In this document: positions 19,731 through 42,799 of the stretch, piece after piece
Numbering within the stretch: the first letter of the stretch is position 1
Layout: the number at the start of each line of letters is the position of its first letter
NCBI RefSeq assembly: GCF_050920415.1
Contig: NZ_CP169309.1
Direction: 5' to 3' (one strand)
Source of the DNA: Escherichia coli
GTDB lineage: Bacteria > Pseudomonadota > Gammaproteobacteria > Enterobacterales > Enterobacteriaceae
Length of the DNA stretch: 64,000 bases
Notes under the pieces: generated by a model
What the model was told of the DNA's origin: nothing
The model's database searches: none
What the model saw: the letters and a program-made list of their open reading frames with translations, nothing else
Made by a program: the position numbers and the translations under genes

Positions 19731-19744
19731 TACGCCTCATACGA

Positions 19745-19885
19745 ACAGCACTACCCCGTAGGGCGGATAAGGCGTTCACACCGCATCCGGCAACCTATGC
19801 CTGATGCGACGCTGAAGCGTCTTATCATGCCTACACAGCGCTGCCCCGTAGGCCGGATAAGGCGTTCGCGCCGCATCTGACATAA
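19745..19885. repeat. REP/BIME cluster
   Basis: Repeated GCCGGATAAGGCGTTCACGCCGCATCCGGCA-type palindromic units downstream of fbaB. Confidence 0.85.
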
Positions 19886-19969
19886 AACAACGTGCACTTT
19901 GTTACGGCTTCCCCCGGGAGGCCGTTTTTATTGCCTGTCATTCTGGATTGATTTTCATATTGTCTTTTT

Positions 19970-19991
19970 TGTGATCGATATCGCGACATTT
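19970..19991. promoter_or_regulatory. Candidate CRP site in gatY promoter
   Basis: TGTGATCGATATCGCGACA resembles TGTGA-N6-TCACA; about 70 bp upstream of gatY. Weak call. Confidence 0.3.
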
Positions 19992-20035
19992 GGAAACAAA
20001 AAATTTCATTATATTTTGAAATCGAAAATAAATAA

Positions 20036-22193
<2,158 letters not shown>

Positions 22194-22202
22194 GGACGGT
22201 AT

Positions 22203-22655
22203 ATGACTAACCTGTTTGTTCGTAGCGGAATTTCTTTTGTCGATCGTAGCGAAGTTTTAACCCATATCGGTAATGAGATGATCGTGAAAGGTGTGGTTCA
22301 TGAAACCTGGCCACAGGCATTAATTGCCAGAGAAGCAGAATTCCCCACCGGGATAATGCTTGAACAGCACGCCATTGCAATACCGCATTGTGAGGCGATT
22401 CATGCTAAGTCGTCAGCCATTTATCTGTTAAGGCCAACAAATAAAGTTCATTTTCAGCAAGCGGATGATGATAGCGACGTGGCGGTATCGTTGGTTATTG
22501 CGTTGATTGTGGAAAATCCGCAGCAGCAATTGAAACTTTTACGCTGTTTATTTGGCAAGTTACAACAGCCCGAGATCGTCGAGACACTAATCACTCTTCC
22601 TGAAACCCAGTTAAAGGAATATTTCACAAAGTATGTTTTAGATTCAGACGAATAA
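22203..22655 (+). CDS. gatA: PTS galactitol-specific EIIA
   Basis: 150 aa ORF in gat operon order. Confidence 0.9.
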   Translation: MTNLFVRSGISFVDRSEVLTHIGNEMIVKGVVHETWPQALIAREAEFPTGIMLEQHAIAIPHCEAIHAKSSAIYLLRPTNKVHFQQADDDSDVAVSLVIALIVENPQQQLKLLRCLFGKLQQPEIVETLITLPETQLKEYFTKYVLDSDE

Positions 22656-22685: not shown

Positions 22686-22970
22686 ATGAAACGCAAGATT
22701 ATTGTCGCTTGCGGAGGCGCGGTTGCGACCTCTACGATGGCGGCGGAAGAAATTAAAGAGTTGTGTCATAGCCATAATATCCCCGTTGAATTAATCCAGT
22801 GTCGGGTTAATGAAATAGAAACCTATATGGATGGTGTACATCTTATTTGTACTACCGCCAGAGTTGACCGCAGTTTTGGCGATATTCCGTTAGTTCACGG
22901 CATGCCTTTTGTTTCTGGTGTCGGTATCGAAGCATTACAAAATAAAATTCTGACTATCTTACAGGGGTGA
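22686..22970 (+). CDS. gatB: PTS galactitol-specific EIIB
   Basis: 94 aa; active-site Cys near N-terminus ([12 protein letters not shown]). Confidence 0.9.
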
Positions 22971-22973
22971 CCT

Positions 22974-24329
22974 ATGTTTTCAGAAGTCATGCGTTATATT
23001 CTCGACCTCGGCCCTACGGTCATGTTGCCGATTGTCATCATTATTTTTTCTAAGATATTAGGCATGAAGGCAGGCGATTGCTTTAAAGCGGGTCTGCATA
23101 TCGGGATTGGCTTTGTTGGCATTGGCCTTGTGATTGGCTTAATGCTGGATTCCATTGGTCCGGCGGCGAAAGCGATGGCGGAAAATTTCGACCTGAATCT
23201 GCATGTGGTCGATGTCGGCTGGCCGGGCTCTTCACCAATGACCTGGGCGTCGCAAATTGCGCTGGTGGCGATTCCGATTGCGATTCTGGTTAACGTGGCG
23301 ATGCTACTGACCCGTATGACGCGGGTGGTAAATGTTGATATATGGAATATCTGGCATATGACCTTCACCGGCGCATTGCTGCATCTGGCAACCGGTTCAT
23401 GGATGATAGGGATGGCGGGTGTGGTAATTCACGCGGTGTTTGTTTATAAGCTCGGCGACTGGTTTGCCCGCGATACCCGAAATTTCTTTGAGCTGGAAGG
23501 CATTGCTATTCCGCACGGTACGTCGGCGTATCTGGGGCCAATTGCGGTGCTGGTGGATGCTATCATCGAGAAAATCCCAGGCGTTAACCGTATTAAATTT
23601 AGCGCCGACGATATTCAGCGCAAATTTGGCCCATTTGGCGAACCTGTCACCGTGGGCTTTGTGATGGGGCTGATTATCGGCATCCTCGCGGGTTACGATG
23701 TCAAAGGTGTATTGCAGCTGGCGGTAAAAACGGCGGCAGTTATGCTGCTGATGCCACGGGTGATTAAACCCATCATGGATGGTTTAACGCCCATCGCTAA
23801 GCAGGCCCGTAGTCGTTTACAGGCGAAGTTCGGCGGTCAGGAGTTCCTGATTGGCCTTGATCCGGCGTTGCTGCTGGGGCATACGGCGGTGGTATCGGCA
23901 AGCCTGATTTTTATCCCGCTCACCATTTTAATTGCTGTTTGTGTTCCGGGTAATCAGGTACTGCCGTTTGGCGACCTTGCCACCATCGGCTTCTTTGTTG
24001 CGATGGCAGTTGCCGTGCATCGTGGAAATCTGTTCCGCACCTTAATCTCGGGTGTCATCATTATGAGCATCACCCTGTGGATCGCGACGCAAACTATTGG
24101 TTTGCACACCCAACTGGCGGCTAATGCTGGGGCGTTAAAAGCCGGGGGCATGGTGGCTTCAATGGATCAGGGCGGTTCTCCCATTACCTGGTTACTGATT
24201 CAGGTTTTCTCCCCGCAAAATATTCCCGGTTTCATTATTATCGGTGCCATTTATCTTACCGGTATTTTCATGACCTGGCGTAGAGCGCGCGGCTTTATTA
24301 AACAAGAGAAAGCCGTTCTCGCAGAATAA
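22974..24329 (+). CDS. gatC: PTS galactitol-specific EIIC permease
   Basis: 451 aa polytopic membrane protein. Confidence 0.92.
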   Translation: MFSEVMRYILDLGPTVMLPIVIIIFSKILGMKAGDCFKAGLHIGIGFVGIGLVIGLMLDSIGPAAKAMAENFDLNLHVVDVGWPGSSPMTWASQIALVAIPIAILVNVAMLLTRMTRVVNVDIWNIWHMTFTGALLHLATGSWMIGMAGVVIHAVFVYKLGDWFARDTRNFFELEGIAIPHGTSAYLGPIAVLVDAIIEKIPGVNRIKFSADDIQRKFGPFGEPVTVGFVMGLIIGILAGYDVKGVLQLAVKTAAVMLLMPRVIKPIMDGLTPIAKQARSRLQAKFGGQEFLIGLDPALLLGHTAVVSASLIFIPLTILIAVCVPGNQVLPFGDLATIGFFVAMAVAVHRGNLFRTLISGVIIMSITLWIATQTIGLHTQLAANAGALKAGGMVASMDQGGSPITWLLIQVFSPQNIPGFIIIGAIYLTGIFMTWRRARGFIKQEKAVLAE

Positions 24330-24376: not shown

Positions 24377-25417
24377 ATGAAATCAGTGGTGAATGATACT
24401 GATGGTATCGTACGCGTTGCCCAACGAGTCATTCCTGAAATTAAACATCAGGATGAGGTGCGGGTAAAAATTGCCAGCTCGGGATTATGTGGTTCCGATT
24501 TACCCAGAATTTTTAAAAATGGTGCACATTATTATCCAATAACGTTAGGCCATGAATTTAGCGGCTATATTGATGCTGTGGGATCCGGTGTTGATGATTT
24601 ACATCCTGGCGATGCGGTTGCCTGTGTGCCGTTATTACCCTGTTTTACTTGTCCAGAGTGTCTGAAAGGGTTTTATTCCCAGTGCGCAAAATATGATTTT
24701 ATTGGCTCACGGCGGGATGGTGGGTTTGCCGAATATATTGTCGTTAAGCGGAAAAATGTCTTTGCTCTACCTGCGCATATGCCTATTGAGGATGGGGCTT
24801 TTATTGAACCGATTACCGTTGGCCTGCATGCTTTCCATTTAGCGCAAGGTTGTGAGAATAAAAACGTTATTATTATTGGTGCCGGAACCATTGGCCTGCT
24901 GGCCATTCAGTGCGCTGTCGCGCTGGGAGCAAAGAGTGTGACGGCTATCGACATTAGCTCAGAAAAACTGGCACTGGCAAAATCTTTCGGTGCGATGCAA
25001 ACATTTAACAGCCTTGAAATGAGCGCGCCGCAAATGCAGGGCGTTTTACGCGAGCTGCGCTTTAATCAGCTTATCCTCGAGACGGCTGGCGTCCCGCAAA
25101 CCGTCGAACTGGCGGTAGAGATTGCCGGGCCTCATGCCCAGCTGGCGCTGGTGGGCACGTTGCATCAGGATCTGCATATAACATCGACAACGTTTGGCAA
25201 AATATTACGTAAAGAGCTGACGGTTATCGGCAGTTGGATGAACTACTCCAGCCCTTGGCCGGGGCAGGAGTGGGAAACGGCGAGCCGGTTGCTGACAGAA
25301 CGTAAGTTAAGCCTGGAGCCATTAATCGCTCACCGTGGAAGCTTTGAAAGCTTCGCCCAGGCGGTGCGTGACATCGCTCGTAATGCTATGCCGGGCAAAG
25401 TGTTGCTTATTCCCTGA
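24377..25417 (+). CDS. gatD: Galactitol-1-phosphate 5-dehydrogenase (Zn-dependent MDR)
   Basis: 346 aa; Zn-ADH motifs (GHEFSG, CxxC cluster) and Rossmann GAGTIG. Confidence 0.92.
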   Translation: MKSVVNDTDGIVRVAQRVIPEIKHQDEVRVKIASSGLCGSDLPRIFKNGAHYYPITLGHEFSGYIDAVGSGVDDLHPGDAVACVPLLPCFTCPECLKGFYSQCAKYDFIGSRRDGGFAEYIVVKRKNVFALPAHMPIEDGAFIEPITVGLHAFHLAQGCENKNVIIIGAGTIGLLAIQCAVALGAKSVTAIDISSEKLALAKSFGAMQTFNSLEMSAPQMQGVLRELRFNQLILETAGVPQTVELAVEIAGPHAQLALVGTLHQDLHITSTTFGKILRKELTVIGSWMNYSSPWPGQEWETASRLLTERKLSLEPLIAHRGSFESFAQAVRDIARNAMPGKVLLIP

Positions 25418-25516
25418 AACCGCGGGCCAGCGTGATGCTGGCCCGGTATTGTGCAAAACAGATCATTCACCAATGGTCCCCCTTCGTTTACACTAGCCAC
25501 AATTGAATATGGGTAA

Positions 25517-26296
25517 ATGACGATGAATTCATTCGAGCGAAGGAATAAGATCATCCAATTAGTGAATGAACAGGGAACCGTGCTTGTTCAGGATCTGGCG
25601 GGAGTATTTGCTGCCTCGGAAGCGACAATCCGTGCCGATTTGCGCTTTCTCGAACAAAAAGGCGTGGTTACGCGCTTTCATGGCGGTGCGGCGAAAATAA
25701 TGTCCGGTAATAGTGAAACCGAGACCCAGGAAGTCGGGTTTAAAGAGCGATTTCAGCTCGCCAGCGCGCCGAAAAACAGAATAGCGCAGGCGGCAGTCAA
25801 AATGATCCACGAAGGGATGACCGTTATTCTCGACAGCGGAAGTACGACAATGCTTATCGCCGAAGGTTTAATGACCGCCAAAAATATCACGGTGATTACC
25901 AACAGTCTCCCGGCGGCGTTTGCCCTTTCCGAAAATAAAGACATTACTCTGGTCGTCTGTGGTGGCACGGTCCGTCATAAAACGCGCTCGATGCATGGCT
26001 CCATTGCCGAGCGTTCATTGCAGGATATTAATGCCGATTTAATGTTTGTCGGTGCTGATGGTATTGATGCGGTTAATGGTATTACGACCTTTAATGAAGG
26101 TTATTCGATTAGCGGTGCGATGGTCACAGCCGCTAATAAAGTGATTGCCGTTCTCGATTCATCGAAATTTAACCGTCGCGGTTTTAATCAGGTACTGCCA
26201 ATCGAAAAAATTGATATTATTATTACTGATGATGCCGTGTCAGAGGTGGATAAACTGGCATTGCAGAAAACACGGGTGAAATTAATTACGGTGTAG
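25517..26296 (+). CDS. gatR: DeoR-family repressor of gat operon (intact)
   Basis: 259 aa continuous ORF (alternative start at 25523); N-terminal HTH plus DeoR C-terminal sugar-binding domain; no IS interruption. Confidence 0.88.
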   Translation: MTMNSFERRNKIIQLVNEQGTVLVQDLAGVFAASEATIRADLRFLEQKGVVTRFHGGAAKIMSGNSETETQEVGFKERFQLASAPKNRIAQAAVKMIHEGMTVILDSGSTTMLIAEGLMTAKNITVITNSLPAAFALSENKDITLVVCGGTVRHKTRSMHGSIAERSLQDINADLMFVGADGIDAVNGITTFNEGYSISGAMVTAANKVIAVLDSSKFNRRGFNQVLPIEKIDIIITDDAVSEVDKLALQKTRVKLITV

Positions 26297-26377
26297 CATT
26301 GTTCTTTATGCCGGATAAGGTGTGTACACCGAATCCGGCATCACTGATACTCCCTGAATTAAGAAAGGGAAATTTGA

Positions 26378-28077: not shown

Positions 28078-28407
28078 GAATAGATTCAAGACTACCATGG
28101 ACACATCCATTTTTATCTCTGATAAGGTATTCTTCAACACCATTATTGAATGTGAGTAATAATGACAAGCAGATAGATGAAACTACAGCAGAATTTTTAT
28201 TTTATGCGGCTATCAGAAAATGATGGCATAAATATTCCTATGCTTTAGCTTCATTTTTTGTAAGCGTCAAACATGCGCGTTCTGGGTGTGCGTAGCCGGA
28301 CCCTGTGCGAGCACGATGCCGTTAAGTGAAAGGCATCGTGCTATGAAGGGGGATTCTATCGATGTGGTCAATGGAAGACGGTCACCTGGGATCAATCCGT
28401 CTCTATG

Positions 28408-28494
28408 GTTTATGCATAAAAAATAAGCCCGTGTAAGGGAGATTACACAGGCTAAGGAGGTGGTTCCTGGTACAGCTAGCATTTTATGGGTTAT
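28408..28494 (-). ncRNA. cyaR: CRP-dependent Hfq-binding sRNA CyaR (RyeE)
   Basis: Minus strand reads GCTGAAAAACATAACCCATAAAATGCTAGCTGTACCAGGAACCACCTCCTTAGCCTGTGTAATCTCCCTTACACGGGCTTATTTTTT; matches CyaR as I recall it, including the terminator hairpin and U-tail. Confidence 0.88.
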
Positions 28495-28588
28495 GTTTTT
28501 CAGCGAAACGGATGATAACCTTAATAAATGCAGCTGTATGTGATCGGTTTCTAAGAATTTTCCATCCGGGAAAAATAATCGAAATTAA

Positions 28589-30608: not shown

Positions 30609-31331
30609 TTAAACGATGCGGCAGGCGTCGGCTTCCCAGCGATAACCGACACCGTAGACGGCGCGGATAAAAGACTGCTCTTCGTCCAGAGCTTCCAGCT
30701 TGCGACGCAGGTTTTTAATGTGGCTGTCGATGGTGCGGTCAGTTACTACGCGGTAGTCGTCATAAAGATGATTGAGCAATTGCTCGCGGGAGAACACTTT
30801 TCCTGGTTCATGAGAGAGTGTTTTCAGCAGACGAAATTCCGCAGGCGTCAGGTCAAGCATTTTACCGCGCCATGAAGCCTGAAAACGACCTTCGTCGATA
30901 ATCAACGGGCTTTCAGCATCCTGTTGCTGCAACTCACGCTGCGGTTTGCAACGGCGCAAAATGGTTTTGACGCGTGCTACCACTTCCCGTGGGCTGTACG
31001 GCTTGCAGATATAATCATCTGCGCCAATCTCTAGCCCGAGCAGGCGGTCGATCTCTTCGATTTTTGCTGTCACCATCACGATCGGAATGTCAGAAAAACG
31101 ACGAATCTCCCGACACAACGTCAGGCCATCGGTGCCAGGGAGCATCAGATCCAACAGGATCAGATCCGGTGGTGTCTGGCGCACATATGGCAGTACCTGA
31201 TCGCCGTGGCTGATAAGCGTCGGCGCATAGCTCGCAGCACGCAGATAATCAATAAGCAACTGCCCCAGCTTCGGTTCATCTTCCACGATCAAAATACGTG
31301 GCGTGTTTTCGTCGATTGGTAACTCGGTCAT
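30609..31331 (-). CDS. baeR: Envelope-stress response regulator (OmpR family)
   Basis: 240 aa; receiver domain plus winged-helix. Confidence 0.93.
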
Positions 31332-32731
31332 ACTTCTCTCTGTAAATCCCGTTCCAGCGGTAACTCTACTGTAATGCTTACCCCGCCAAAAGGCGAATGA
31401 GCGGCAACAATGCGACCATTATGTGCTTCAACAATGTTAAGACAAATAGCCAGCCCCAGGCCGGAACCGCCGCTGGCACGGTTGCGGGAACCTTCGGTGC
31501 GATAAAAACGCTCAAACAATTTTTGCAGTTGATCGTCACTAACGCCCGGTGCACTGTCGGCAAAGGTCAGGCGCACCGTTTTGTCATGTTGCTCGGCAGA
31601 GATATGCAGGCTGCCGCCGCTGTCGGTATAGCGCAGGCTGTTTTCCAGTAAGTTATTGAACAACTGCATTAAACGATCGCGATCGCCAAATACGGTAATG
31701 CTGTCTGGTAGGGAAAATTGCAGTTTCAGCCCGCGGCTGGCGAAACGCTCACGAAATGCGCCACCCGCGACTTCCAGTAGCGGGATCAGATCCACCGACG
31801 ATTTCTGGTAGGCGAGAGCGCCTTCATCAGACATCGACAATTGATGAAGATCATCCACCAGTTTGGTCAGTGTACCGACCTCTGCCTGTAAAGAAGCCAC
31901 CGTCTCCGGCGTGAATTTACGCACGCCATCCTGAATAGCTTCCAGTTCGCCGCGCAGTACCGCTAAAGGCGTGCGCAGCTCGTGGGAGATATCGGCCATA
32001 AAATCGCGGCGCATCTGTTGGTTTTTCTCCAGCGTGCTGGCGAGCTGGTTGAAGTCTTGCGCCAGTTTGCCCAATTCATCTTCGCTGGTGGGCGTCACGC
32101 GAGTAGTGAAATCGCCCGCTGCCAGTTTGTGTGTACCGTCCACCAGTCGTTTGACCGGAGCCAGCAAACCGCGCGCCAGTGGGAATGTCGCCAGCGCCGC
32201 TAACAAGGTAGATAAAGCGACAATCAGCCAACTGGTTTGCCTCTGTTGTCTGTCAAAATTGATGTCGGTATTGCGGGTCAGTCGTTCAACAGGGGAGGCG
32301 ATCACCGCACCCACTTCCGCCCCATTGACCATAATGGGCCGCCGTGTGCCGTCTGGTGGAATCGGTGCTCGCGGGCCAACCAGCACTTTGTTGTTTTGAT
32401 CAACCACCCAGAATTGCGTGCGCCAACCGTGTGGCGGCATACCGGGGCCGGGCTTATCTTCGTTGTTATCATGCTCCAGCGAACGTAGGATCTGAAATAC
32501 AAAGCGATCGTTATTACGCAGGAAGCGCCAGTTCCCGTGCTGGGCGTACTGCTCACCAAGCGCATCGCCGAGCATTTGCAGCCGTTGTTCATTACCATGC
32601 TTGATGTAATCGATAAAGCCGCGCTCAAAACTGATACGTACCGCCCAGTGCATCGTGATCAATAAGACAATGCAGGTGGCGAAAATCGCCAGAAACAGTT
32701 TGCCGGTAATACCGGGTCGCCAGAACTTCAT
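31328..32731 (-). CDS. baeS: Envelope-stress sensor histidine kinase
   Basis: 467 aa; H-box [12 protein letters not shown], ATPase G-boxes; 4 bp overlaps with mdtD and baeR. Confidence 0.93.
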
Positions 32732-41821: not shown

Positions 41822-41962
41822 AACGGGAAAGCCCCTCCCGAGGAAGGGGCCTTAAATAAGGAAAGGGTCATGATGAAGTGGATCATCATCGTGGTGCTCT
41901 TAGTCGTTAGCTACCCAGCTTACTAAGACTACCAGGGCGGGGGAAACCCCGCTCTACCCTCA
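41822..41962 (-). ncRNA. Sib-family antisense sRNA (antitoxin), copy 1; ends approximate
   Basis: Minus strand has TTGACA (41992-41997), 17 bp spacer and a weak -10 (TACTTT); transcript would fully overlap the ibs ORF and end at a GC-rich hairpin + U tract near 41822. Confidence 0.6.
41869..41925 (+). CDS. Ibs-family type I toxin, 18 aa hydrophobic peptide (MMKWIIIVVLLVVSYPAY)
   Basis: ATGATGAAG start 8 nt after AAAGGG RBS; hydrophobic 18-residue peptide; below the ORF-track size cutoff. Confidence 0.8.
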
Positions 41963-42150
41963 CTCCTGAAAGTATGCCTTCACAATCAGATTGTCAATCC
42001 GCAGGCTTTGTAGTCTGCGATCCTGCCAGCAAATATTCTTTGCGAGACGTTACGCAATAATCACAGATGAAACTATTTTATCTACGCGTTAGCGATAGAC
42101 TGCATTCAGGGCAAAAGGAGGTAGGCCGCCGATTTCAGCGGGACGCTGAA

Positions 42151-42291
42151 ACGGGAAAGCCCCTCCCGAGGAAGGGGCCTTAAATAAGGAAAGGGTCATG
42201 ATGAAGATACTCATCATCGTGGTGCTCTTAGTCATTAGCTTACCGGCTTACTAAGACTACCAGGGCGGGGGAAACCCCGCTCTACCCTCAC
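42151..42291 (-). ncRNA. Sib-family antisense sRNA, copy 2; ends approximate
   Basis: Same promoter and terminator elements as copy 1, shifted by the repeat period. Confidence 0.6.
42198..42254 (+). CDS. Ibs-family type I toxin, 18 aa (MMKILIIVVLLVISLPAY)
   Basis: Same architecture as copy 1, 329 bp downstream. Confidence 0.8.
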   Translation: MMKILIIVVLLVISLPAY

Positions 42292-42478
42292 TCCTGAAAG
42301 TATGCCTTCACAATCAGATTGTCAATCCGCAGGCTTTGTAGTCTGCGATCCTGCCAGCAAATATTCTTTGCGAGACGTTACGCAATAATCACATGTGAAA
42401 CTATTTTATCTGCAAGTTAGCGATAGACTGCTTGCATGGCGAAAGGAGGTAGGCCGCCGATTTCAGCGGGACGCTGAA

Positions 42479-42625
42479 ACGGGAAAGCCCCTCCCGAGGA
42501 AGGGGCCTTAAATAAGGAAAGGGTCATGATGAAGCTACTCATCATCGTGGTGCTCTTAGTTATTAGCTGGCCAGCTTACTAAGACTACCAGGGCGGGGGA
42601 AACCCCGCTCTACCCTCACTCCTGA
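42479..42625 (-). ncRNA. Sib-family antisense sRNA, copy 3; ends approximate, promoter region diverged
   Basis: TTGACA -35 retained, but the spacer and -10 differ from copies 1 and 2. Confidence 0.5.
42526..42582 (+). CDS. Ibs-family type I toxin, 18 aa (MMKLLIIVVLLVISWPAY)
   Basis: Same architecture; third copy. Confidence 0.8.
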   Translation: MMKLLIIVVLLVISWPAY

Positions 42626-42799
42626 AGTTATGTTACTCCACCCTTATTGTCAATCTGTAAGTCCACGTTCTTGCGGGGCGAATAGCAAAACCCTCTGCGC
42701 TTATGGGCCGAATTCTGAAAGTTGCTTTGCCTGCTCTTATTTCATTATTGCAGTCGGTATGATACCGGACCTCAATAATTCTCTAAGAAAGGATTTCTT

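Follow-up and report, generated by a model that had tools for sequence, protein, structure and literature searches.

An intact gatR gene and a predicted GatR-repressed galactitol operon in an Escherichia coli strain divergent from K-12

The role of GatR as repressor of the galactitol operon, and the constitutive expression that follows when gatR is broken, are known from the literature. In Escherichia coli K-12, constitutive gat expression has been ascribed to insertion of an insertion sequence (IS) in gatR in several papers (including PMC5850726), and swapping the pseudogene of MG1655 for gatR of E. coli HS resulted in a regulated gat operon (Sousa et al., PMC5850726). In the gatR-restored MG1655, regulated expression removed the selection for loss of gat, and constitutive mutants carrying new IS insertions in gatR arose instead (PMC5850726). 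In a 2026 CRISPRi preprint, in which gatR of MG1655 is described as broken by IS3E, silencing of gatR was beneficial in strains LF82 and CFT073, showing that GatR is at work in isolates from nature. In both strains, de-repression of gat reportedly fails in the mouse gut, so the strength of gat induction does vary in nature.

Two further systems are relevant here. GatR of Salmonella Typhimurium represses the gat promoters, and removal of its helix-turn-helix abolishes this repression (PMC7972205). For the tagatose repressor TagR, a related DeoR protein of E. coli Nissle 1917, operators of the type CTTTCA..TGAAAG have been predicted, consisting of CTTTCAAAATGAAAGTAAA and a second copy (PMC12226905). 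An experimentally defined GatR operator or footprint of E. coli was not found in the literature searched.

Here, we describe the gat locus in a stretch of 64,000 nucleotides from an E. coli genome, referred to as the window. The features of the locus are collected in Table 1.

Table 1. Features of the gat locus, with positions in the window.
Feature	Position	Strand	Basis
fbaB terminator	19904-19925 + T-run	.	sequence scan, fold
gatY promoter/operator region (putative GatR operator)	19926..20047	+	~120 nt left after fbaB terminator
Five TTTCR/YGAAA half-sites	starts 19953, 20004, 20017, 20023, 20043	.	sequence, repeats
CRP-like site TGTGATCGATATCGCGACA	19970-19988	+	sequence
Inverted repeat ATTTCA-N8-TGAAAT across gatY -10	20003-20022	.	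repeat search
-10-like CATTAT/TATATT of gatY	20007-20015	+	sequence
gatY	20048-20902	+	ORF, open
gatZ	20931-22193	+	ORF, open
gatA	22203-22655	+	ORF, open
gatB	22686-22970	+	ORF, open
gatC	22974-24329	+	ORF, open
gatD	24377-25417	+	ORF, open
GC-rich hairpin just past gatD stop, 9-bp stem, 5-nt loop, no U-tract	25423..25445	+	inverted repeat; -20.5 kcal/mol, z -2.8
gatR promoter, putative	25466..25494	+	layout conserved across Enterobacterales gatD-gatR spacers
-35-like TTCACC of gatR	25466-25471	+	spacer conservation
CCTTCG element in 17-nt gatR promoter spacer	25481-25486	+	spacer conservation
-10-like TACACT of gatR	25489-25494	+	spacer conservation
gatR CDS, DeoR-family repressor, 257 aa + stop	25523..26296	+	RefSeq, ORF, K-12 identity; longest ORF from 25517, two codons earlier
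HTH_DeoR DNA-binding domain	25538..25696	+	Pfam PF08220, residues 8-60 of 259-aa frame, E 2.9e-16
DeoRC sensor/oligomerisation domain	25769..26230	+	Pfam PF00455, residues 85-238 of 259-aa frame, E 4.1e-51
Empty IS3E target site GAC	25819..25821	+	MG1655 annotation, junction reconstruction, blast breakpoint
REP-like palindrome between convergent gatR and yegS	26310..26339	.	fold of 26297-26377: -28 kcal/mol, z -4.3

The gatR gene and its disruption in K-12

A first-pass annotation of this DNA had described gatR as a continuous DeoR-family gene of 259 codons without an IS, a description that holds, apart from the probable start codon. The region 25517..26296 on the plus strand is a single open reading frame (ORF) with an ATG start, 259 codons, and no internal stops, as read from both the ORF list and the bases. 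A frameshift or premature stop was looked for and not found, the frame being open throughout 25517..26296. Blast and a reconstruction of the junction showed the region to be colinear with MG1655 across the IS3E point, with no IS in between. The product has the features of the DeoR family: a DeoR-type helix-turn-helix, a DeoRC domain whose match spans positions 5–159 of the 160 in the model (PF00455), and a length of 257–259 aa (family ~250 aa). Its sole sequence match in the PDB is 7l6l, the C-terminal domain of a deoxyribose operon repressor, which corresponds to the DeoRC region.

The true start of gatR is likely the second ATG, which yields a protein of 257 rather than 259 aa. For the identical sequence in N96 and HS, RefSeq gives a gene of 774 nt and 257 aa that starts at the equivalent of position 25523; a GGGT motif lies 8 nt upstream of this ATG, which a cross-genus alignment of gatD-gatR spacers found to be kept in every genus compared. 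Outside Escherichia, the first ATG is not conserved, ATGACG being changed there to ATCACA or ATCAAT. Both lengths occur among public gene calls.

The alignment to K-12 gatR that had been proposed as a check showed 15 differences over 774 positions, all of them synonymous, and GatR as joined from the 2 MG1655 fragments is identical to the window product over its 257 aa. The gene shows 100% DNA identity to gatR of strain N96, and the encoded protein, WP_001295426.1, shares its accession with GatR of E. coli HS. Directly 3′ of gatD and convergent with yegS, the gene has the same place as in MG1655, HS, and N96. The exact protein is found on at least 1,000 public contigs and is labelled “galactitol utilization operon repressor” in some sources; its PGAP name is “DeoR/GlpR family DNA-binding transcription regulator” only.

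Compared with diverse E. coli alleles, gatR carries 0–1 nonsynonymous and 15–24 synonymous differences. Its dN/dS is 0–0.03 at a dS of 0.08–0.39 (0.02–0.03 at a dS of 0.25–0.39 when compared with other Escherichia species), which indicates that purifying selection on the gene is strong. The ORF is far beyond chance, given the presence of the exact protein on so many contigs and the synonymous bias of the variation within E. coli. Taken together, it is very probably a functional, wild-type gatR, whose DeoR-family product represses gatYZABCD, the galactitol PTS/catabolic operon.

Two sets of candidate features within the gene were rejected. Short ORFs overlapping 25517–26296 on both strands (40–83 aa) were considered chance frames, as the strong purifying selection on gatR explains the region. 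An antisense promoter-like match (26243–26216, 10 of 12) was also attributed to chance, given that the promoter scan described below gave fewer sites than shuffled sequences.

The annotation of MG1655 shows gatR (b4498) in two pieces, of 299 and 475 nt, with a 1,258-bp IS3E between them. The element lies after nt 299 of the gene, equivalent to 25821/25822 in the window, and GAC is duplicated. The earlier statement that gatR of MG1655 is split by an IS and that its gat operon is constitutive therefore agrees with the annotation as to the split, while the papers cited above tie the constitutivity to it.

When 5,426 complete E. coli genomes were searched, gatR was found in one piece in 4,756 (~88%), split or partial in about 350, and absent from 317. 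“One piece” was defined as coverage of at least 80% of the gene, a criterion to which point frameshifts are invisible, so that truly intact copies number somewhat fewer than 4,756. The 4 split copies listed are all interrupted at query nt 297, where K-12 has its IS3E insertion with a 3-bp duplication. Laboratory strains or their derivatives account for at least 3 of the 4 (ER1709, AML003_par, and T159A, with CV601 as listed parent); the source of the fourth, T142A, is given as “pig.” An intact gatR is the ordinary state of the gene and the broken copy of the K-12 laboratory strain the exception, which was already known and is unremarkable. Beyond correct annotation, the intact gene is of little consequence.

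The hairpin just past the gatD stop is kept in 17 sequences from many genera, with compensatory changes in 3 of 8 pairs, and is probably a weak terminator or 3′-end stabilizer of the gatYZABCD transcript. Further downstream, the promoter-like layout before gatR is common to all genera examined, which suggests that gatR has its own, possibly autoregulated, promoter. Outside Escherichia, 3 spaced C(T)TTCG repeats precede gatR; Escherichia, Pluralibacter, and C. amalonaticus keep the promoter-proximal CCTTCG only. On the other side of the gene, the REP-like palindrome between gatR and yegS is likely a bidirectional transcript-end structure.

The gatY promoter and regulation of the gat operon

The GatR protein of the window has in effect been validated experimentally, though with the K-12 promoter, as it is the same protein as HS GatR. 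Since HS GatR restored regulation in MG1655, it can soundly be inferred that GatR-mediated regulation is retained, as the first-pass annotation had proposed. A GatR-repressed, galactitol-inducible operon appears to be the best reading for this strain, and results from K-12, where gat is constitutive and soon disappears in the mouse gut, ought not to be transferred to it.

The following model can be proposed. In the absence of galactitol, GatR oligomers would most likely sit on TTTCR-type half-sites around the -10 of gatY (~19950–20047) and prevent transcription. Once galactitol has been imported and phosphorylated, an intermediate of the pathway, probably a sugar phosphate by analogy with other DeoR-type repressors, would bind the DeoRC domain and cause GatR to leave the DNA, after which cAMP-CRP at the adjacent site would activate gat transcription. 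GatR itself would apparently be made from a weak promoter of its own in the gatD-gatR spacer. Four elements of this model are predictions: the sequence of the operator, which intermediate acts as inducer, the promoter of gatR, and the regulated state of gat expression in this strain.

The TTTCR half-sites at the gatY promoter are the candidate GatR operator. A -35-like GCGACA lies just upstream of 19993, and the half-site blocks ATTTTCAYATTGTC and ATTTCATTATRTTTTGAAATCGAAA were kept in all but one of the 14 E. coli strains sampled, the exception having its core promoter deleted, while the 136-bp gatY promoter segment as a whole is only 83%–93% identical to the window in the sampled strains. 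Strain 11899A lacks both the core gatY promoter and the initial gatY codons.

A scan of genome collections yielded 54 GatR loci from Enterobacterales, most of which keep the order gatYZABCD-gatR; this order, together with a convergent yegS, was matched in more than 40 Enterobacterales loci as well as in MG1655, HS, and N96. Half-site enrichment was scored against dinucleotide shuffles. Upstream of gatY in other genera, 5–9 CTTTCR half-sites were found per 130 nt, with z-scores of 3–5 in most genera. For Escherichia, the enrichment taken alone is weak: the 5 half-sites compare with 2.8 expected (z ~1.5), and 25 of 200 shuffles contain as many. Five is the top density in the 64-kb window, equaled in 2 other places, one of them inside gatR. 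The layout of the half-sites at gatY also differs between most Enterobacterales outside Escherichia on the one hand, and Escherichia, Pluralibacter, and C. amalonaticus on the other. The cross-genus footprint provides a testable model of the GatR operator, in which TTTCR half-sites surround the -10. Two gat promoters have reportedly been described, as has binding of Salmonella GatR; neither was used as evidence.

A scan with consensus promoters returned nothing upstream of gatY or gatR, and its total of 5 sites compares with 9.7 in shuffles. The promoter hexamers given here are sub-threshold matches, with conservation across genera as their sole support.

Upstream of the promoter, the fbaB-gatY spacer (19740–19880) contains REP-type elements, including a match to Rfam naRNA4 at 19761–19831 (60 bits, gathering score 59.5). 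A stretch of 12 bp within the second REP-like copy is absent from MG1655.

The gatY promoter of this strain is a rare allele, and GatR may be intact while regulation departs from the textbook pattern, being leaky, constitutive, or hard to induce, should the private substitutions of this allele affect the binding of GatR or CRP or the strength of the core promoter. Over the 136-bp segment, only 1 of the 5,426 genomes (MFDS1022581) matches at 99% or more, 3 match at 95%–99%, and the rest at 80%–95%, most of them at 80%–90%. Six substitutions (19930, 19965, 19978, 19993, 20001, and 20034) occur only in the window and MFDS1022581 among 14 strains. Of these, 19978 lies in the spacer of the CRP-like site, 19993 just 3′ of the -35-like element, and 20001 is found 2 nt before the inverted repeat; changes in the CRP-site spacer or beside the -35 could have a quantitative effect on expression. 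Induction strength does vary in nature, as the reported lack of gat de-repression in LF82 and CFT073 shows. However, the 6 substitutions leave both the TTTCR half-sites and the TGTGA arm of the CRP-like site untouched, and the right arm of that site matches at 3 of 5 positions, equal to K-12 in the alignment. In addition, the same promoter precedes an unchanged operon in MFDS1022581, implying that at least one further isolate has retained the allele. We therefore consider such non-textbook regulation distinctly unlikely.

A milder version of this idea concerns strength rather than mode of control. Compared with other Enterobacterales, the half-sites of Escherichia are rearranged, and 2 of the 3 CTTTCG repeats before gatR have been lost. 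An invariant GatR acting on a rare gatY promoter with these rearranged half-sites might give quantitatively different repression or induction in this strain, which seems rather unlikely. If true, such cis-regulatory divergence could bear on the use of galactitol in the gut by different strains.

The repressor could also be intact while the pathway itself is dead through missense changes in the structural genes, leaving the strain Gat-negative and regulation irrelevant. Natural isolates that keep gatR often have inactivated gat structural genes, and GatY and GatZ each have 11 amino-acid differences to their K-12 counterparts. Nevertheless, a gene-by-gene comparison of gatYZABCD with MG1655 found all 6 genes to be full length, with no internal stops or frameshifts, and their dN/dS of 0.03–0.3 is typical of genes under constraint, making this a very improbable scenario. 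All 6 structural genes are identical to those of MFDS1022581, and gatC is intact in the window, while that of MG1655 has a 2-bp frameshift. Among the isolates with an intact gatR beside broken gat genes, both gatY and gatC contain stops in E4, gatZ has a frameshift in FWSEC0009 (O104:H4), and gatD carries an IS1 in Z1323PEC0011.

Lastly, that the ORF encodes a different DeoR paralogue (AgaR- or SrlR-like) can be dismissed with near certainty: NCBIfam, which holds no GatR-specific model, gives AgaR and SrlR as best matches, and PGAP assigns only a generic DeoR/GlpR name, but the scores of 232.9 and 226.3 bits are below the curated cut-offs of 260 (NF040755) and 350 (NF007753), respectively, and the product is 100% identical to K-12 GatR, is encoded in the gat locus, and bears the name of the galactitol repressor in some sources.

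Lineage of the strain and neighbouring loci

An intact gatR had also been taken to place the strain outside the MG1655 lineage. The placement itself stands, as the window diverges by ~5%, but gatR is a weak marker for it, since the gene is intact in ~88% of complete E. coli genomes. Across ~45 kb of syntenic genes, the window shares ~95% identity with MG1655 and likewise with HS (88.8%–98.0% per gene). Over 26300–51000, only MFDS1022581 (100%) and N96 (99.8%) were at least 99% identical among the 5,426 complete genomes, with 121 records at 95%–99% and 5,304 at 90%–95%. This points to a deep-branching, rarely sequenced lineage of E. coli. MFDS1022581 is closer to the window than N96, yet has one nonsynonymous difference in gatR.

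The similarity to N96 varies along the locus. Over the 1,380 bp from the 3′ end of gatD through gatR to the 3′ end of yegS, the 2 sequences are 100% identical, and downstream they are 99.8% identical. N96 diverges in the promoter, gatY, and gatB (dS 0.09–0.11), with a 361-bp segment of the promoter and 5′ part of gatY at 95.0% identity, and converges with the window again by gatC and gatD (dS <0.01). Such a pattern points to recombination with a breakpoint within the gat operon.

Several other loci in the window were of note. The gene baeS (31328–32731) is only 88.8% identical to K-12, with its neighbours baeR, mdtD, and mdtC at 95%–96%, and appears to be a sensor-kinase allele that is locally divergent or recombinant. 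Three tandem SIB_RNA copies (Sib/Ibs type I toxin-antitoxin; ~139 bits each) lie at 41855–42653, where MG1655 has 2 (sibA and sibB). The sRNA CyaR is present at 28421–28506. The remnant of the cryptic prophage PR-X that adjoins the region 28253–28506 in K-12 (ogrK and yegZ; ~590 bp) is absent from the window.

Some public contigs with enterobacterial gat genes carry unexpected labels. These include contigs of Chryseobacterium sp. 18061 and Bacillus sanguinis (a GatR fragment of 583 bp, 91%), and a contig of a Citrobacter metagenome-assembled genome (MAG) with a 100% identical GatR. Contamination or mis-binning likely lies behind all 3.

Comparison with known DeoR-type systems

The closest relative is GatR of K-12, which has the same amino acids over 257 residues, the same domains, and the same place after gatD with a convergent yegS. 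The loci differ in the IS3E carried by K-12, in 15 synonymous sites, and in the gatY promoter, where the window has many differences from both K-12 and HS outside the conserved blocks.

In the fetched loci of other Enterobacterales, none of which was from Salmonella, GatR is 62%–88% identical to that of the window, and the order gatYZABCD-gatR is common to Citrobacter, Klebsiella, Enterobacter, Leclercia, Kosakonia, and Serratia. CTTTCG occurs 6–9 times at gatY and 3 times before gatR in these relatives, whereas Escherichia has 5 half-sites at gatY and one CCTTCG before gatR.

AgaR, a DeoR-family protein, represses the N-acetylgalactosamine (aga) regulon of E. coli; among the NCBIfam models, it matches GatR best, over the full length. 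It shares the two-domain build, and the pathway under its control is again of the PTS/tagatose-bisphosphate-aldolase type, with a CRP site alongside. Its operators are said to hold CTTTC-type repeats. Unlike GatR, AgaR acts at another locus and on another sugar, and GatR stays below the AgaR cut-off, as noted above.

TagR is of the DeoR type and, like GatR, represses a tagatose-bisphosphate-aldolase cluster (PMC12226905). Its predicted operators overlap the transcription start beside a CRP site, and their half-sites are of the same type as in the ATTTCA-N8-TGAAAT repeat of the window. In contrast to gatR, its gene is at another locus, is absent from K-12, and is associated with an ABC transporter rather than a PTS; the TagR operators are predicted rather than footprinted.
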